This document shows positions 19,804 through 31,987 of a stretch of 64,000 nt of DNA, in pieces. Location: assembly GCA_020241125.1 (NCBI GenBank), contig GCA_020241125.1_4708.1. The stretch is one strand, 5' to 3'. The notes under the pieces are model-generated. The model was given only the letters and a program-made list of their open reading frames with translations. It was not told where the DNA came from and did not search any database. The DNA comes from a phage. Within the stretch, counting starts at the first letter, position 1. Each line of letters begins with the position of its first letter. Position numbers and translations under genes: made by a program.

Positions 19804-20217
19804 TTACTGATTAATCAAGTCGTTAGCAACAATCTTGGTGTAACCCGCCTGATTAAGAATTTGATTAATTTTCGTCACGTCGGTCGCATCCTCAATAACG
19901 ATGCTGGGTTTATAGATCAGCGTCTTGGTAACGACGATTGTACTCTCCTTAATCCAAGGAATCCCTAGAATCACATACTCACCATCGGCTGTAATGACCT
20001 CGACGTAATTGTATTTCGTCGGATCGTTCGGTACACTAGACGGGAGCCGGGAATAAATCTGTTGGTGAATGGCGTCTACATCACGACCGTTACGTACAGC
20101 TGTGCGATAATTGTACACAGCGCTAATTTCTACTCCGTTGAAGTTAACCCCAAGTTCTGGGGCGTACACATCAAAACTCACAACAGAGCCAATCTTTTCT
20201 AAATCAGAAGCTGGCAT
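19804..20217 (-). CDS. hypothetical protein
   Basis: 137 aa track ORF. Confidence 0.5.
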   Translation of the reverse strand: MPASDLEKIGSVVSFDVYAPELGVNFNGVEISAVYNYRTAVRNGRDVDAIHQQIYSRLPSSVPNDPTKYNYVEVITADGEYVILGIPWIKESTIVVTKTLIYKPSIVIEDATDVTKINQILNQAGYTKIVANDLINQ

Positions 20218-20749
20218 AATAGCATCCTTTATTTAAAATGTATTCATATCCGAAAGTCGTCGCTGACCAGACCCGGATAGATGATAGTGTTCCGCCACGA
20301 TAAAACGTTTTTGTGAATTCCATATCCTGGACAACACGATAATAAACACGTCCGATAATACGCACGATAAGGTTTCGTGATAACGATCTCTCCTCGCAGT
20401 ATTCATCGATAAAGTCATCGTCGATATCCGATAAGACAACATCCGCAATTTCTTGCAGTAGATTCCTCATCAGCATCTGCCTTCCTTCGGTACCCCACCC
20501 AGACAAACAGTAATCGTCTTCTGCCTGACTATAGATGTCGTTAACCGCCTGTTCGAGCAGTTGCTCAAGATAGTAGTCATCGCGTTTTATAACGTGGCGA
20601 CGGCGCTCAGTGGCGTATTTTTCCATCCTGTGTTTCTCTTGTTCGGCGTATGTATTAACGACGCCACAGTCTTTTCTGGATCGTCCCACAATGCGCGACG
20701 AAAACTGGATACTACCATAACGGTAGGATAGATTTGTACAACCTCCCAT
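20204..20749 (-). CDS. hypothetical protein, start uncertain
   Basis: 181 aa track ORF; N-terminal part overlaps the upstream ORF in another frame, so an internal start is likely. Confidence 0.4.
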   Translation of the reverse strand: MGGCTNLSYRYGSIQFSSRIVGRSRKDCGVVNTYAEQEKHRMEKYATERRRHVIKRDDYYLEQLLEQAVNDIYSQAEDDYCLSGWGTEGRQMLMRNLLQEIADVVLSDIDDDFIDEYCEERSLSRNLIVRIIGRVYYRVVQDMEFTKTFYRGGTLSSIRVWSATTFGYEYILNKGCYYASF

Positions 20750-21075
20750 CCGTAACGATGTGCGTTAGTCGTACGTCCGACATTGAACAGACATAACTGA
20801 TTTAAGAAACAGAGCTGCATCTTCGTAAACAACACCATATCTTCACGTTTAACGTATCCGAGGATATATGCATTCTCGAACGCCTCGCGTGACAAGACGG
20901 GACGATTAAGATACCGTAACGCTAATACCAACAACGTTGTTATGCGCAACGGATCTTCTGGGTCATTCATGGTGCTCAGCTCTGCTTGTAACCAGTCAGG
21001 GATAGTAACCGTCAGACGATAGGTATCTGTTCCACGATCAACCACATTCAATGTTGAAAAAGGCAACATATCCAT
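20587..21075 (-). CDS. hypothetical protein
   Basis: 162 aa track ORF. Confidence 0.45.
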   Translation of the reverse strand: MDMLPFSTLNVVDRGTDTYRLTVTIPDWLQAELSTMNDPEDPLRITTLLVLALRYLNRPVLSREAFENAYILGYVKREDMVLFTKMQLCFLNQLCLFNVGRTTNAHRYGWEVVQIYPTVMVVSSFRRALWDDPEKTVASLIHTPNKRNTGWKNTPLSAVATL

Positions 21076-21613
21076 GAATTCCTTCTAGCTCGAGGTTGTT
21101 CTCGCCGGTCTTCGGTAATAACCCACTGGCCGTTAACATCTGTGTCATCGAGTAGTCAAAGCACGGGAATATCAGGTTAACGGTTTCCTGGATCGCGTCA
21201 ACATAACTATAAATGGCTTCATAATACTCACCGTCATGATCTACGCTAACCAGTTCCTGACACAGTTCTTCGCTTATCATTTCATATACCGGCGGATACC
21301 ACGATTGAAATGGTCGCTGCATACGTAACGACCAATACTCGTACGTCGTATACTGAAGCACGTCGTAAGCCGATACGTTAATGCGGTCGAAGAAAGCATA
21401 CTTGTCCATATGCTGATACAACATCGCCAGCACGGTTTCCAAGCACACCGATATCCGCACGCCGTCATCTTTCCCGTTAAGAAAATTAGGTTTCTGCCGA
21501 TAACGCACAAATGCCGACGGCTTTGATTGCATTATTCCACCACCAACCATAACGTCATACTCGTATCTAACGTAAAATTGAAATGCCACCAATCTTCTAC
21601 ACGTGGAATCCAC
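21038..21613 (-). CDS. hypothetical protein, start uncertain
   Basis: 191 aa track ORF; probable start at an internal Met near 21532-21550. Confidence 0.45.
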   Translation of the reverse strand: MDSTCRRLVAFQFYVRYEYDVMVGGGIMQSKPSAFVRYRQKPNFLNGKDDGVRISVCLETVLAMLYQHMDKYAFFDRINVSAYDVLQYTTYEYWSLRMQRPFQSWYPPVYEMISEELCQELVSVDHDGEYYEAIYSYVDAIQETVNLIFPCFDYSMTQMLTASGLLPKTGENNLELEGIHGYVAFFNIECG

Positions 21614-22215
21614 GTACGAAGGATTTGGTTAACTTCGCTTCGCATCACCGATAAACGACAACGAAAATCGAACTTCTCATCGTGGCCGTAGTCTTCATGC
21701 ATGAAAACTTCATCCAAAACGAACTCAAGTTGCATGTCGACATCACGGCCAGAGATATTCCGTTTGTACAGATACAGTTCAATCGTGTCGTAAAGCAACG
21801 TGTGAATATCATAATTTCCGTTCGGTGAGAAATAAGGTAATCGCTCATCGAGCATCGTAAACAGATATTCGCTGTAGTTTAATAACGGGATGATGTACCG
21901 ACGCCCTGTCTGTGGTGTGCGAATATGTATCGAAACCTGACTTGGGCGCGGAATAACCGACGGCTTAGAATCGTCTCTCTGAAATTGCTCTAAAGATCGC
22001 AACAAAGGTGGCCGCATTGTAACTCTCCAACGCCCAATTGTAAGGCCCTTCCAACATGTGTTCCCATACGTGAATAAACTCACTACCGAAGACAGGCTCC
22101 AGCGCCATGGTGAGATTCGTAAGTTCTGACGCAGCCGCATGGTAAGCATCAACATGTCTTTCCATTGACGGATCGTCTTCATTGAAAATACGTTCTGTGT
22201 CGCCAGCCCGCTCAA
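21532..22215 (-). CDS. hypothetical protein, start uncertain
   Basis: 227 aa track ORF; N-terminal about 85 codons overlap the next ORF in another frame; possibly one gene with 21965-22594 through a +1 shift. Confidence 0.3.
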   Translation of the reverse strand: MSGLATQNVFSMKTIRQWKDMLMLTMRLRQNLRISPWRWSLSSVVSLFTYGNTCWKGLTIGRWRVTMRPPLLRSLEQFQRDDSKPSVIPRPSQVSIHIRTPQTGRRYIIPLLNYSEYLFTMLDERLPYFSPNGNYDIHTLLYDTIELYLYKRNISGRDVDMQLEFVLDEVFMHEDYGHDEKFDFRCRLSVMRSEVNQILRTWIPRVEDWWHFNFTLDTSMTLWLVVE

Positions 22216-22594
22216 TAAGTTCGGTAATGAGATCTGTCCATGTCTCGTGACACGTCATCATTTCCTGTTCTCGACTTAGTATGCCGATGTCTGCGTGGAC
22301 GCTGGACTCGAACCGGTCTAAAAGGACCCGAAGAACGTGCACCTTGTCGATGTATTTCACCGTTATCCAGGAAAGCGGTTGCCACCGACTCAGCATCCAT
22401 CCGGTACTCGGGAACCCCAAACTCATATAGTACGGGTTGCACCGGACCGAAGACGGAGCGACGTTGTTTAAATCGCTCCTTAAGGGCAAGGCCTTGTTTA
22501 ATATAAACGGGTTCATTGGCGAGTTGTTCCGCTTTTCGTTTTGCGTGAGCCAATCGAAGTTCTTCCAATTGCCCAAGCCATTCAAATTGTTCAT
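21965..22594 (-). CDS. hypothetical protein, start uncertain
   Basis: 209 aa track ORF overlapping 22212-23189 by about 380 nt; plausible coding only from about 22355 or the Met at 22261. Confidence 0.3.
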   Translation of the reverse strand: MNNLNGLGNWKNFDWLTQNEKRNNSPMNPFILNKALPLRSDLNNVAPSSVRCNPYYMSLGFPSTGWMLSRWQPLSWITVKYIDKVHVLRVLLDRFESSVHADIGILSREQEMMTCHETWTDLITELIERAGDTERIFNEDDPSMERHVDAYHAAASELTNLTMALEPVFGSEFIHVWEHMLEGPYNWALESYNAATFVAIFRAISERRF

Positions 22595-23189
22595 CTGTTA
22601 GCTCCTGGGGACGTTCAACAATCGCGCCAGACGGGCAGATATTGATCGTAATGTTAATTGACGGCATCGCCATCACTCGAGGATTACTATTACGTACGCG
22701 GACAACATGTTCGGTTGCTGATTTACGATCGACGCAATACTCTGTTTCTTGGAACTCAAATGCTTTTAACGGTGTTGGTTTTATTTGACGTTTAGGAACG
22801 CGGCCAAGATCAACAATATAGGCATAATCGCACACACGTTCTATTCCGTAAATACGGTTATCCGACCAGTTCTTACCAAACAGCTTATTGTGGTGATAAG
22901 ACAGATATTCGGTTACCATACCCTGGACAACATCGAAGTCTTCTCGAAATTCAGGTTGGTACCAAATCGGACCGAGAATATCTGCGAACGATTCATGACG
23001 ATATCGAGGATCATGTCGAGTCCAGGTCATTCTCTGATTAAGATCGAAATCCACCAACAACTCGGTTAATTGCAATTTTTCCTTCGGAGAAAGCTGGCGT
23101 TGATGATGCAAACTCAGGCAATCGATAAGCGGTAATGAAACCCACGATGCTAATGTGTACAAATCGATCCTGGCTAATCTCTTGGTCAT
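22212..23189 (-). CDS. hypothetical protein
   Basis: 325 aa track ORF; last about 45 residues are Arg-rich and look out-of-frame. Confidence 0.5.
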   Translation of the reverse strand: MTKRLARIDLYTLASWVSLPLIDCLSLHHQRQLSPKEKLQLTELLVDFDLNQRMTWTRHDPRYRHESFADILGPIWYQPEFREDFDVVQGMVTEYLSYHHNKLFGKNWSDNRIYGIERVCDYAYIVDLGRVPKRQIKPTPLKAFEFQETEYCVDRKSATEHVVRVRNSNPRVMAMPSINITINICPSGAIVERPQELTDEQFEWLGQLEELRLAHAKRKAEQLANEPVYIKQGLALKERFKQRRSVFGPVQPVLYEFGVPEYRMDAESVATAFLDNGEIHRQGARSSGPFRPVRVQRPRRHRHTKSRTGNDDVSRDMDRSHYRTY

Positions 23190-23280
23190 ACTCTTTTCCT
23201 AAGTCCCCATTGTTTATACACACGATATCTGGGAATAGTTAAAATATACGGCGTAAAACGAAGCAGGAGAGTTTCTGACG

Positions 23281-23601
23281 TCATTTTCTCCCTCTTCGAA
23301 TACTACCGATACCTCTTTCGTCTAAGACGTCCCAGGCACGCTTTATTTCATCCTCCGTTGCTCTGGTATCTGGAGGGACAACCATAACACAGTCGTGGAA
23401 CGGCCAATGTGTAGGTCTGGGGTTAGCGAACAAATCATCCCATTCAAATGTCCATTCTTTCTTTGAGCGATTGTAGTAGAGCGTAAGGTACGTGTTGGTA
23501 TACGCCGGATAACCGCGCATAACTTCAATATCCTTACGATCTTGCCGTTCCTGATTCCAATCGTTAAACCGCTTTCTTATTTTCTCCCACCACTTTCCCA
23601 T
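23281..23601 (-). CDS. hypothetical protein
   Basis: 106 aa ORF; GGAG RBS. Confidence 0.5.
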   Translation of the reverse strand: MGKWWEKIRKRFNDWNQERQDRKDIEVMRGYPAYTNTYLTLYYNRSKKEWTFEWDDLFANPRPTHWPFHDCVMVVPPDTRATEDEIKRAWDVLDERGIGSIRRGRK

Positions 23602-23892: not shown

Positions 23893-24873
23893 TTAGAAAA
23901 GCAAGAAACCGCTATTCTTCGCTTCCGCTACAGTTTCGTCACCAACTTTCGGCGCTTGTTGACGTGCGTTACGATGTTCGATGTAACGTTTCGCTTCGTC
24001 CGCGATCTGTTTGATAATACCCCCTAAACGATCGGTACTTAAAACAAACGACGTCGCTTCACGAATTGGGCTGCTTTCAGGCACAAAACCATCGCAGCTG
24101 TAAATAGCGCTAACGCCCATGACTTTTGTCGCGTCTTTCGGATAAAGCGTACAGAAAGCAATCGGGCTATCGTTCTCTTTCGTCCAATCGTATCCCATGA
24201 ACGTATTCAGTTCGGTGATCGTTGGTTCCAAACCGGTAACACGTGGATGGTTTAAGAAGTTTTCCAGGTCGGCGCTGTCAAGACGACGGTTCTCGCCAGA
24301 AAACAGAACACAAAGCTGGCTAATAACAACCTGCACGTCCAGGTTGACATCCTGCTCCGATTTCCCATTTTCGCCATTCATGTGATAGCTAACAATCACT
24401 GGACGTTTCAACCCTTCTGCAGCCGCCATCAGTCCTTTGAAGGTGCGATCGGCGTTGATCGTTTGACGCTCGTCATCGAACGAGGCAACGATGCAACACA
24501 CCACACGTTCACCACGTTCCAGCAGGTTAGCAACCAACGCAGGACCTGCAACAGAACCTGAACCACCGCTCAGACTAAAGACCACGATATTAAATTTACC
24601 TGGCGTATGCTTATTCAGAATACCCGGGATTTGTGAACAGATCAGTTCAGCGTTCTCATCACGCTTCTTACCAGAACCGTCTAACTCACGACCGGCTACA
24701 TCTTTAAAGATGTAAATATGATCGTCACCCAGTGTGCTATCGCGTAGGTTAGCGCGGCTGGTATCGACATACGTCATGCTGTGTAATCCTTTCGCGACTT
24801 CGCCTTCAAATGCTGAGCCGATTTCGCCACCACAACCACCGACAGCCCAAATATGTACTTGGTTCTCTTGCAT
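23893..24873 (-). CDS. phuZ: tubulin/FtsZ-like protein (PhuZ-type spindle tubulin)
   Basis: 326 aa; N-terminal IWAVGGCGGEIGSAF (FtsZ GGGGGN / tubulin GQCGNQIG loop) and FSLSGGSGSVAGPALVA (tubulin signature GGGTG(S/T)G). Confidence 0.7.
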   Translation of the reverse strand: MQENQVHIWAVGGCGGEIGSAFEGEVAKGLHSMTYVDTSRANLRDSTLGDDHIYIFKDVAGRELDGSGKKRDENAELICSQIPGILNKHTPGKFNIVVFSLSGGSGSVAGPALVANLLERGERVVCCIVASFDDERQTINADRTFKGLMAAAEGLKRPVIVSYHMNGENGKSEQDVNLDVQVVISQLCVLFSGENRRLDSADLENFLNHPRVTGLEPTITELNTFMGYDWTKENDSPIAFCTLYPKDATKVMGVSAIYSCDGFVPESSPIREATSFVLSTDRLGGIIKQIADEAKRYIEHRNARQQAPKVGDETVAEAKNSGFLLF

Positions 24874-30637: not shown

Positions 30638-30742
30638 TGCATTGCCTTCCGCGAGTGTAATCAGGAAGGTAATGTAGGTTTATTTTAATCTCCATTTCGC
30701 GATGATATGACAGTCTTTATTACGTTTACCATCTGAGGGAGC

Positions 30743-31987
30743 ATGCTCATGTCTTCTATTTTACAGGTGTTTAATGCGCATGCGGAAGGCATTGACATCG
30801 ACGAGTATTTTGTTAATCAGGTTATCCGTTACGCGACACGCTTCCGTACGCAAGACCAAGAACACATGCGTTTTTTCGGTGGGGTTCTGTTAGGTGTACA
30901 GAAAATCCGATTCACAACAAGACATAACGATACATGGTTTTCCGACGTCTTGATGATGGATGAAGAAAGCTTACGGCGCGATTTGAGTAAACTACCCTTC
31001 TACAATACGCAGACCAACCGTGTTGCCTCAAACGCCTTTAACCTAAGTTGCTGTTGGTTGCTTTATGCGATCTTCCACAGCAAACAAATCAAAAAAGAAA
31101 AGGTTCGTGAAGCCGGGATGCTTGCAGCAATGCAAGTCCTCCATTATAAATTCATTTGCGGTCTGGTAGCACGACGTTATCCTTATAACGCCGATCCGGC
31201 TATCGCCATTAAGGCGTACGATGAGTTAACCCTCAAATCAGGCATCAAGCGCATGAATAGCTGGAATGAGTACATCGACGAACGCTGTAACGCCATCATT
31301 GCGCGCAATAGCACGCATCTCAGTCGCTGGTCAACCCTGGAACCAGATAGTGTCGCCGAACGTTTTGTGCGTGATGTGAATACCGGAATCCGTAAGGTTA
31401 TCAACCGTATCACCGATACGTACTATGCGATGTATGAAGAGGGTAAGAAGATAGGCACGTCCTCTCAAACTGTAGAATTAGACGACGGCCTCGCTGTTCG
31501 CGATATCAAACGCAACGAAACCACTTATCGTCAATATCTGTTCGAAATCGCTTATGACCGAACAAGTTTCGTTAAACGTGAACTCATGGTCGTCATCCTC
31601 GACGTGCATCATACTACCAATCTTTTATCCCTTGAGCGAGCGTTAAGCTATATCAGCGCTAACGTAGAACGACCGACAAGAGACGGAAAACAGGTCTCTC
31701 AGATGTTGCGGCTTGTAATGGAGCATGCTATCGAGTATATCATCTTGAATAAGGTCGATATGCGCGATCTTACGTTCTTATTCTACATGCGTAACGTGTA
31801 CACGTCCAACCGTACCAGCAACCCGAAACTGTTAGAACTGCGTAAACTTGGCTCTGAAGTCATTAAGAAAGCAACCAACGCGAGAAACGACGCTGAAGCT
31901 GCAGCGACACGTACCGGTGTCTTTCTGTATATCCTGCTTCGTGTGTTTAGCCGTAACTATTACGTTCGACGTGCGATGTCACGTTAA
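30743..31987 (+). CDS. hypothetical protein
   Basis: 414 aa ORF; GAGGGA upstream (start may be the second ATG at 30749). Confidence 0.55.
   Translation: MLMSSILQVFNAHAEGIDIDEYFVNQVIRYATRFRTQDQEHMRFFGGVLLGVQKIRFTTRHNDTWFSDVLMMDEESLRRDLSKLPFYNTQTNRVASNAFNLSCCWLLYAIFHSKQIKKEKVREAGMLAAMQVLHYKFICGLVARRYPYNADPAIAIKAYDELTLKSGIKRMNSWNEYIDERCNAIIARNSTHLSRWSTLEPDSVAERFVRDVNTGIRKVINRITDTYYAMYEEGKKIGTSSQTVELDDGLAVRDIKRNETTYRQYLFEIAYDRTSFVKRELMVVILDVHHTTNLLSLERALSYISANVERPTRDGKQVSQMLRLVMEHAIEYIILNKVDMRDLTFLFYMRNVYTSNRTSNPKLLELRKLGSEVIKKATNARNDAEAAATRTGVFLYILLRVFSRNYYVRRAMSR

Follow-up and report, generated by a model that had tools for sequence, protein, structure and literature searches.

Three overlapping minus-strand reading frames of a Goslar-like jumbo phage are probably three separate genes

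When three long open reading frames (ORFs) overlap heavily in successive frames of the same strand, do they belong to one protein whose frames have been joined by recoding, broken by errors or lost to decay, or to three proteins made independently? The question is raised by part of a 64,000-nt stretch of phage DNA (the window), in which the three ORFs described in an earlier note were confirmed as follows.

22212-23189, minus strand: ORF A, 325 aa
21965-22594, minus strand: ORF B as an open frame, 209 aa
21532-22215, minus strand: ORF C as an open frame, 227 aa

The overlaps, originally given as 380 and 250 nt, measure 383 and 251 nt, and each transition is indeed a +1 step ((23189-22594) mod 3 = 1 from A to B; (22594-22215) mod 3 = 1 from B to C). 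Of the explanations that the note had listed, conserved starts and separate orthologs in distant relatives favour the last, in which three short genes start internally. A, B and C are very probably separate genes, with starts of their own and overlapping ends, of a nucleus-forming jumbo phage of E. coli that resembles Goslar. On this reading, the locus would be laid out as follows.

22212-23189, minus strand: gene A, 325 aa, starting at ATG 23189; homolog of Goslar gp237 (Goslar_00198)
21965-22360, minus strand: gene B as redefined here, 131 aa, starting at GTG 22360; homolog of Goslar gp238
21532-22017, minus strand: gene C, 161 aa, starting at ATG 22017; homolog of Goslar gp239
22212-22360, minus strand: true A/B overlap, 149 nt, where the tail of A is the -1 frame of the first 49 codons of B
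21965-22017, minus strand: true B/C overlap, 53 nt
22361-22594, minus strand: 5' part of ORF B, non-coding as read in B; the +1 frame of gene A, open here by chance
22018-22215, minus strand: 5' part of ORF C, non-coding in frame C, with stops in relatives and nonsynonymous changes
22018-22087, minus strand: invariant block inside B, upstream of the C start, with almost no synonymous change

Relatives of the locus and limits of the three genes

Escherichia phage Goslar (vB_EcoM_Goslar, NC_048170) matches the window at 98.5% identity, with no indel at the three genes; in its annotation gp237, gp238 and gp239 are distinct entries, flanked by two predicted terminators (Goslar_00198, Goslar_00197 and Goslar_00196 in MK327938, all designated 'hypothetical protein'). 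The clade comparison comprised 13 Goslar-clade genomes including the window (87.5-98.8% identity), derived from independent isolates and from metagenomes; A, B and C are intact in every one of them, and region 21450-23250 contains zero indel columns against the 12 other genomes. A has its full 325 aa in 12 of the 13, its stop in the remaining genome (L014) lying three codons earlier. In two distant syntenic jumbo phages with about 30% protein identity (L010 and L011), A, B and C, like the neighbouring D, E and F, each have a homolog encoded by a gene of its own; the independent short genes with conserved starts that the note had named as refuting frameshifts are thus present in these deep lineages.

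C is 36% identical to its counterpart in L010 (L010_g2, E 4e-26) and 44% identical to that in L011 (L011_g2, E 3e-29), and an exhaustive HMMER search with ORF A as query identified distant homologs of 334 aa (P0004, E 3e-35) and 280 aa (P0005, E 1e-16). With A, B and C as tblastn queries, a set of 50,697 phage records yielded Goslar only, word-indexed searches with B and C returned close relatives alone, and a scan of genome contigs gave no match.

Substitution patterns delimit the genes further. Constraint switches sharply from frame to frame, with dN/dS in the part that each gene has to itself amounting to about 0.15 for A (dS 0.52 and dN 0.08 against L006), less than 0.1 for B and 0.06 for C (dS 0.62, dN 0.04); in the downstream part of B, 37 variable sites among the 13 genomes are synonymous and 6 nonsynonymous. 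Within 22361-22594, substitutions fall at third positions of frame A and are nonsynonymous in frame B, and in the deep lineages similarity in the frame of ORF B goes no further than about 8 codons upstream of the B start. Similarly, every substitution in 22018-22215 is nonsynonymous in frame C, and stops close this frame in Goslar and L006-L008 (22101-22099) and in L018 (22053-22051). Judged by these patterns, both segments are open frames without meaning. The length of the ORF overlaps is largely a product of chance, and of 850 runs of the +1 frame in real genes of the window, 17 extended over 78 codons or more. Two remarks of the earlier note agree with these limits: ORF B, said to look protein-like only from about 22355, is constrained in frame B from about 22360, and the Arg-rich end of A, said to look out of frame, consists of about 45 last residues that are Arg-rich and predicted to be disordered.

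We infer that a single minus-strand transcription unit holds A, B and C and that the three are initiated independently, B and C each at a start codon of its own that falls within the 3' end of the gene before it.

As to what the proteins do, none of the six genes of the chain had a match in Pfam or PHROGs, AF2 models are of low confidence (pLDDT 55 for A and 52 for B), and a fold search produced weak matches only, to uncharacterized jumbo-phage proteins. In the part of the Goslar virion MS table that was consulted, gp236-gp241 are not among the proteins found, so that A, B and C are, as far as that part goes, probably non-structural. The 'gp196' that a Goslar virion paper names as a virion RNA polymerase subunit follows RefSeq numbering and is unrelated. 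No discussion of gp237-gp239 or of frameshifting was found in the literature on Goslar.

Start codons, conserved blocks and the A/B overlap

Codon GTG 22360 is invariant in all 13 clade genomes and, in the deep lineages, is matched by an ATG at the homologous codon of L011 (6917) and by a GTG two codons upstream in L010 (6217). Counted by codon position after the B start, identical sites number 14/21/14 of 29 in the comparison with L011 and 8/13/3 of 16 in that with L010, which, as aligned, is the profile of a coding frame, frame B. The Shine-Dalgarno-like sequence of this GTG is weak (CTGGAT). GTG 22360 also lies in the path of ribosomes translating the tail of A. Another candidate, GTG 22342, was eliminated by a GTA in L018.

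Alternatively, B might begin at the start annotated in Goslar (ATG 22261, or ATG 22258), overlapping A by about 50 nt, with the conserved stretch 22369-22262 acting as a cis element of non-coding type such as a leader, a translation-initiation region or a promoter. The gene caller used on L011 sets Met1 of B exactly there, products of 97-98 aa recur in automated annotation, and frozen blocks of 60-75 nt are also found ahead of the A, C and D starts. However, B is under strong purifying selection even though 6 of the 13 genomes lack the first ATG and 4 the second, these 4 being without either, and at deep divergence the periodicity of frame B reaches upstream of 22261, where L011 and L010 have homologously placed start codons. 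Since gene callers generally shun long same-strand overlaps, the 97-98 aa calls carry little weight, and a start at the Goslar ATG is unlikely. The window and Goslar have the same genes in the same order and frames, with identical coordinates of A and C after offset, and differ in how gp238 is delimited: its public start (98 aa, A/B overlap of 50 nt) is probably wrong, and the GTG would give a protein of 131 aa and an overlap of 149 nt. The start of Goslar gp240 likewise seems misplaced, the conserved start being the ATG equivalent to 21550. Corrections to gp238 and gp240 would matter for cloning, tagging and knock-down in this model nucleus-forming phage.

C starts at ATG 22017, which does not vary among the 13 genomes; a GGAG (22028-22025) lies 7 nt upstream. 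In L010, C starts at the same point, at the conserved 'YN' codons of B (TAC AAT G), and the N-termini compared are similar (MTKHLLL and MRPPLLR); L010 also has a like B/C overlap, of 41 nt, and that of the Goslar clade has a single variable site in its 53 nt across the 13 genomes. A longer C starting at GTG 22083 would have accounted for the 118-nt invariant block, but was rejected on account of an in-frame TAG in L018, a stop 15 codons upstream of the ATG in L010, and variable sites that are all synonymous in B.

Block 22018-22087 belongs to this 118-nt run (22088-21969), which is identical to L006 and is exceeded in length by just one such run in 14 kb. Its 70 nt contain 5 variable sites among the 13 genomes, all synonymous in B; because the same sites read in frame C amount to four nonsynonymous changes and one stop, the block is not dual coding. 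RNA structure was dismissed as a cause of the frozen blocks, with fold z-scores of +1.7 for this block (structure below that of 196 of 200 shuffles) and +0.5, and no Rfam match for the frozen blocks. A comparison of nine upstream regions revealed no 7- or 8-mer common to three or more of them. Blocks with near-constant synonymous sites before several starts hint at cis-acting signals within coding sequence.

In the first 99 nt of the A/B overlap (22360-22262), dS drops to 0.05-0.08 in both frames, as opposed to 0.52 in the A-only part and saturation in the B-only part, and there are 7.1 variable sites per 100 nt vs 24.5-34.7 in single-frame parts; the final 50 nt of the overlap vary freely. 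The frame of A stays open for 49 codons in the overlap, a length reached in 16 of 1552 runs by the -1 frame of real genes (mean 11), and this out-of-phase pair, with a conserved start codon for each gene, is intact together with its overlap in all 13 genomes. Because the frames are offset by one base, nearly any change would alter one of the two proteins, which would account for the roughly tenfold decrease in dS over 22360-22262. Constraint on frame B is evident here, and selection on the tail of A is likely; at the same time, the block at 22087-22018 is equally invariant without dual coding, so that low variation alone is no proof of selection on the tail.

A itself is made up of a conserved core of about 280 aa and an Arg-rich tail predicted to be disordered, pLDDT in its AF2 model being below 50 over residues 226-325. 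The distance over which A reads on past the B start differs by lineage, from about 20 nt in L010 and 89-95 nt in L011 to 149 nt here. The N-terminal coding region of B would be the older frame, and A may have been extended past an earlier stop, its Arg-rich tail arising by overprinting as a -1-frame reading of the first 49 codons of B. If so, the overlap offers a clean, datable case of a C-terminus growing over the start of its neighbour (about 20, about 90 and 149 nt). A resemblance of the tail to P0004 (RPVRVQR vs RPVRRQR), once regarded as proof of an ancestral tail, was downgraded, since the match is forced by the conserved LLDRF codons of B and is not independent evidence.

Frameshifting, sequence errors and gene decay

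Programmed +1 frameshifting, another of the explanations offered by the note, would take place at UUU-AGA 22322-22317 (A to B) and 21994-21989 (B to C), yielding A-B or A-B-C fusions instead of, or besides, the separate proteins. In a Ty1-like model, tRNA-Phe in the P site would slip from UUU onto UUA as long as AGA, a rare codon, is still undecoded in the A site, and the putative junction peptides would read ...SSGPF-DRFESSVHADIGILSR (SSGPF-DRFESS...) and ...TFVAIF-EQFQR. The candidate sites are the following.

22317-22322, minus strand: candidate shift site 1, TTT AGA in frame A; the same bases read cTT TTA GAc (Leu-Leu-Asp) in B
21989-21994, minus strand: candidate shift site 2, TTT AGA in frame B

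Both transitions are in the +1 direction and an in-frame TTT AGA stands at both junctions. The motif occurs in frame once among the 18,426 codons that make up the long ORFs of the window, at the site in the A tail, and as a hexamer TTTAGA is present only nine times in the window, both strands counted. In addition, AGA is rare in the phage (4.0 per 1000 codons), the window encodes no tRNA, and B has no strong Shine-Dalgarno sequence. Site 1, however, is accounted for by the conserved Leu-Leu-Asp codons of B, and the motif does not persist in relatives, being replaced by TTT CGA in L006-L008 and L016 and by CTT AGA in L011, and missing from L010, where A ends upstream of the equivalent position. 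All 13 clade genomes share site 2 unchanged, but it falls within a frozen block, and L010 has TAC CGG there. The orthologs in L010 and L011 are separate and have their own starts; over the 13 codons preceding site 1, frame B is conserved and shows coding periodicity, from a conserved start that a fusion would not need; the frame of A and its stop are kept for 35 codons past the site; and C has a good GGAG-7 nt-ATG. An Rfam search found no known recoding element, and the RNA around the junctions has no stable local structure. When the hypothetical read-through fusion was used as query in a word-indexed protein search, only 325-aa homologs of A were retrieved.

Frameshifting as an explanation of the locus is thus very improbable, and the presence of two TTT-AGA at two junctions is treated as a coincidence, though an uncomfortable one. 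We give hardly more than slight credence to minor +1 shifting at UUU-AGA 22322 and 21994 in the Goslar clade, by which some A-B and/or B-C fusion would be made besides three separate proteins; if true, it would constitute a lineage-specific recoding layer over ordinary overlapping genes.

The two remaining explanations of the note are barely credible. Sequencing or assembly indels, such as homopolymer errors, could in principle have broken one gene into three frames, and the window does have one homopolymer-length difference elsewhere (T4 vs T5 at about 20234-20239), but 13 independently assembled genomes from isolates and metagenomes share the three-frame layout without any indel in 21450-23250, and the layout recurs in relatives at about 30% protein identity. 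A pseudogene gathering frameshifts has nothing but the look of the overlapping ORFs in its favour, against dN/dS values of about 0.06-0.15 in own segments (roughly 0.1 for every frame), the lack of internal stops in the 13 genomes, and conserved start and stop codons. The lack of indels and the purifying selection acting on each frame therefore exclude sequencing errors and gene decay. The locus calls for caution, for long ORF overlaps in successive frames can mimic recoding or errors where, as appears to be the case here, the genes are ordinary and separate.

Comparison with known overlapping and recoded genes

Overprinted same-strand genes that are out of phase are known from phiX174 (A/B/K and D/E) and from the lysis gene of MS2. 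As in these systems, the A/B overlap has two frames on one stretch of DNA, of which the presumed younger is odd in composition and predicted to be disordered, and synonymous change is suppressed. Unlike them, it would consist of a C-terminal extension by which one gene runs over the start of its downstream neighbour, and it is found in a 237-kb genome with no evident compression pressure.

Systems of +1 frameshifting include E. coli prfB (CUU UGA C, with an upstream Shine-Dalgarno sequence), yeast Ty1 (CUU AGG C) and cps/tsh of Listeria phage PSA. The locus resembles them in the +1 direction and in having, at both junctions, a shift-prone P-site codon followed by a slowly decoded one (UUU AGA). 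It differs from them in that the downstream frames have conserved starts of their own and separate orthologs, the motif is lost in deeper relatives, and the upstream frame runs to a conserved stop well past the site.

Layout and annotation of the overlapping genes

The locus very probably consists of separate overlapping genes, an ordinary though tidy arrangement with a 149-nt overlap that is likely dual-frame; three short genes with internal starts, one option raised in the earlier note, is supported by separate orthologs, conserved starts and purifying selection in each frame. As that note had described, three minus-strand ORFs (A, B and C) overlap in successive +1 frames, by 383 nt (A/B) and 251 nt (B/C) in the ORF listing, every ORF being +1 relative to the preceding one.

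Features of the locus
22212-23189, minus strand: ORF A, 325 aa (ORF listing)
21965-22594, minus strand: ORF B, 209 aa (ORF listing)
21532-22215, minus strand: ORF C, 227 aa (ORF listing)
23893-24873, minus strand: PhuZ-type tubulin, directly upstream

The window is 98.5% identical to the nucleus-forming jumbo phage Escherichia phage vB_EcoM_Goslar, whose annotation places here the hypothetical proteins gp237 (325 aa), gp238 (98 aa) and gp239 (161 aa), with short overlaps. These are part of a chain of overlapping genes between two predicted terminators, and the reference genome likely carries a mis-annotated start in this stretch. None of A, B and C matched Pfam or PHROG; a fold search with a weak model of A returned only marginal matches, all of them uncharacterized proteins (264-287 aa) from other nucleus-forming phages, and gp236-gp241 had no match in the portion of the Goslar virion mass-spectrometry table consulted.

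When 1.84 billion representative proteins were searched exhaustively with A by HMMER, only two distant homologs came up: P0004 on contig L011 (334 aa, E 3e-35, 32% identity) and P0005 on contig L010 (280 aa, E 1e-16, 29% identity). Both contigs are chimalliviruses syntenic with the window, sharing the gene order DUF7484, tubulin, small gene, A homolog, small-gene chain, SH3DP and divergent DNA polymerase. By blastp, the genes following A in L010/L011 match B (E 5e-10, 4e-8) and C (E 4e-26, 3e-29), and homologs of the further chain genes D, E and F are likewise present, those of B-F each being called as an individual gene.

Constrained frames and start codons

Relatives gathered as IMG/VR contigs (L004, L005), Logan contigs (L006-L009) and metagenome contigs (L014-L018) gave a comparison set of 13 genomes, 87.5-98.8% identical. 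Against the 87%-identity relative (L006), dS and dN are 0.52 and 0.08 in the A-only part, saturated and 0.05 in the B-only part, and 0.62 and 0.04 in the C-only part, which indicates purifying selection on all three frames, each in its own segment. Classification of each substitution in all three frames mapped sharp switches: the constrained frame is A down to ~22370, B from ~22340 to ~22040 and C from ~21950, in agreement with the earlier impression that frame B is protein-like only from about 22355. Neither ORF B over its 5′ 234 nt nor ORF C over its 5′ 198 nt is constrained in its own frame, and frame C is interrupted by stops: Goslar and L006-L008 have one at 22101-22099, L018 one at 22053-22051. 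Since 2% of the +1-frame open runs in the window's real genes reach 78 codons or more, the long ORF extensions are attributable to chance.

The B start annotated in Goslar, ATG 22261, is lost in six of the 13 genomes (ACA or ACG instead), and ATG 22258 next to it reads CTG in four, although frame B is strongly constrained downstream; none of the 13 departs from GTG 22360. Another candidate, GTG 22342, was rejected, being GTA in L018. Upstream of the called B start, the +1 frame of L011 reads SWMTMKYVKPVNIIRLLLDRFVDSV, its window counterpart being SWITVKYIDKVHVLRVLLDRFESSV, and has ATG at the codon homologous to GTG 22360; in L010 the counterpart is WVTVSYVNKLMVLRF, and a GTG lies two codons upstream. 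Identity at B positions 1/2/3 is 14/21/14 of 29 between window and L011 (29 codons after this start) and 8/13/3 of 16 between window and L010 after the B start, compared with 15/21/12 of 29 at positions 1/2/3 of a genuine A-only control block. The most conserved position is the second of B and third of A, which argues that frame B is translated, rather than frame A alone or a non-coding element. Together, the ATG losses, the invariant GTG, the homologous starts in L011 and L010 and the frame-B codon periodicity place B, on sequence grounds, at 21965-22360, with a predicted product of 131 aa.

A terminates ~20 nt past the B start in L010, 89-95 nt past it in L011 and 149 nt past it in the Goslar clade. 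Its Arg-rich tail does look out of frame, as had been noticed, because it is a −1-frame reading of the first 49 codons of B; its likeness to the P0004 tail (RPVRVQR versus RPVRRQR) is forced by the conserved LLDRF codons of B, and thus lends no separate support to a function. Across the clade, both frames show dS values of 0.05-0.08 in 22360-22262, where variable sites number 7.1 per 100 nt, compared with 24.5-34.7 in single-frame parts. Frame A stays open over B for 49 codons, a length reached by 1% of −1-frame runs (average 11), which suggests that the tail is maintained. In its final 50 nt the overlap varies freely among the 13 genomes, and an early A stop in L014, three codons short (…SHY*TY*, equivalent to 22221-22223), indicates that the extreme C-terminus of the tail is dispensable; A residues 226-325 are predicted to be disordered in a low-confidence AF2 model. 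An 88-aa antisense ORF (22240-22506, plus strand) also spans the conserved overlap; its sequence does not appear protein-like, and it is probably a by-product.

C starts at the invariant ATG 22017, with GGAG 7 nt upstream. This ATG arises from conserved Tyr-Asn codons of B (TAC AAT G) in the window and L010 alike, and the C homolog of L010 begins at the equivalent point, its N-terminus being similar. In L011, the C frame is homologous also upstream of the called ATG (EVSVHLRRPQSGRQY versus SQVSIHIRTPQTGRRY), so that B and C probably overlap there as well. GTG 22083 was rejected as a C start because the frame is broken by a TAG in L018 and by a stop in L010.

Frameshifting, sequencing artifact and decay

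At each junction the upstream frame contains an in-frame TTT AGA (site 1, A/B, 22322; site 2, B/C, 21994), an arrangement that resembles a Ty1-type +1 site: AGA makes up only 4.0 per 1000 codons in the phage, no tRNA is encoded in the window, the in-frame pair turns up a single time among the 18,426 codons of the long ORFs, and both window strands together hold only nine TTTAGA hexamers. However, site 1 reads TTT CGA in four genomes of the clade and CTT AGA in L011, lacks a counterpart in L010, where A has terminated before it, and is merely the conserved Leu-Leu-Asp codons of B, while site 2 is TAC CGG in L010. Moreover, frame B is conserved upstream of site 1, with coding periodicity from a conserved start codon, and C has a good ribosome-binding site of its own. 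Neither a match to known recoding RNA nor a stable local RNA structure was found at the locus, and the separate orthologs in L010 and L011 are the outcome that the earlier note had named as refuting the frameshift idea. With sites varying across relatives, separate orthologs and genes having their own starts, the programmed +1 frameshifting proposed earlier is not supported; shifting at these sites is very improbable, and then only as a minor extra pathway.

Sequencing indels are rejected by base-by-base alignment with Goslar (zero indels in 21532-23189) and by the 13-genome alignment (zero indel columns in 21450-23250), and a decaying gene by purifying selection in each frame and by A, B (from 22360) and C (from 22017) being intact in all 13 genomes, the sole exception being the A of L014, three codons shorter.

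Low-variation blocks and neighboring genes

A 118-nt run at 22088-21969, identical in the window and L006, is the second longest in the 14 kb compared, the longest being 170 nt at 30664-30835. Its upstream 70 nt (22087-22018) have five variable sites among 13 genomes, all synonymous in B; this block is not dual coding, and 196 of 200 shuffled sequences are more structured than its RNA. It may be an unstructured translation-initiation region, an internal promoter for phage RNA polymerases or a recombination patch. Comparable frozen blocks lie ahead of the A start (23263-23190) and the D start (21612-21551). Against the 87% relative, a near-undiverged stretch of 60-105 nt accompanies each chain-gene start (23157-23263, 21551-21612, 21021-21080 and 20601-20660), in part within coding sequence of the gene upstream; no 7-8-nt k-mer is common to at least three of the upstream regions compared.

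Nine of the 13 genomes have ATA, GTA, ACA or GTG at the annotated start of gp240, the Goslar homolog of D (ATG equivalent to 21532, overlapping the C stop as TAATG), whereas ATG 21550 is invariant and agrees with the 170-aa gene called in L006; the gp240 start is thus probably mis-annotated too. In the gp242 homolog (20204-20626, minus strand), the window alone among the genomes compared has four T at 20234-20239, versus five in Goslar, L004, L005 and L006, which changes the protein end from ...YIFK* to ...YILNKGCYYASF* and makes the gene overrun the SH3DP-homolog start (ATG 20217); the difference reflects either a sequencing error in the homopolymer or genuine variation. The gene at 23281-23601 (106 aa, phrog_5903, no assigned function) appears dispensable or variable, given a ~190-nt deletion equivalent to 23357-23545 in L005 (IMGVR_UViG_3300011560_000001) and a 65-aa gene called there in L009.

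The two distant contigs, L010 (Logan SRR22177369_487917) and L011 (Logan SRR33371454_12849, where a SUKH/SMI1-family gene adjoins the polymerase), are apparently undescribed chimalliviruses, with ~30% protein identity to Goslar in these genes despite the shared order around PhuZ and the DNA polymerase.
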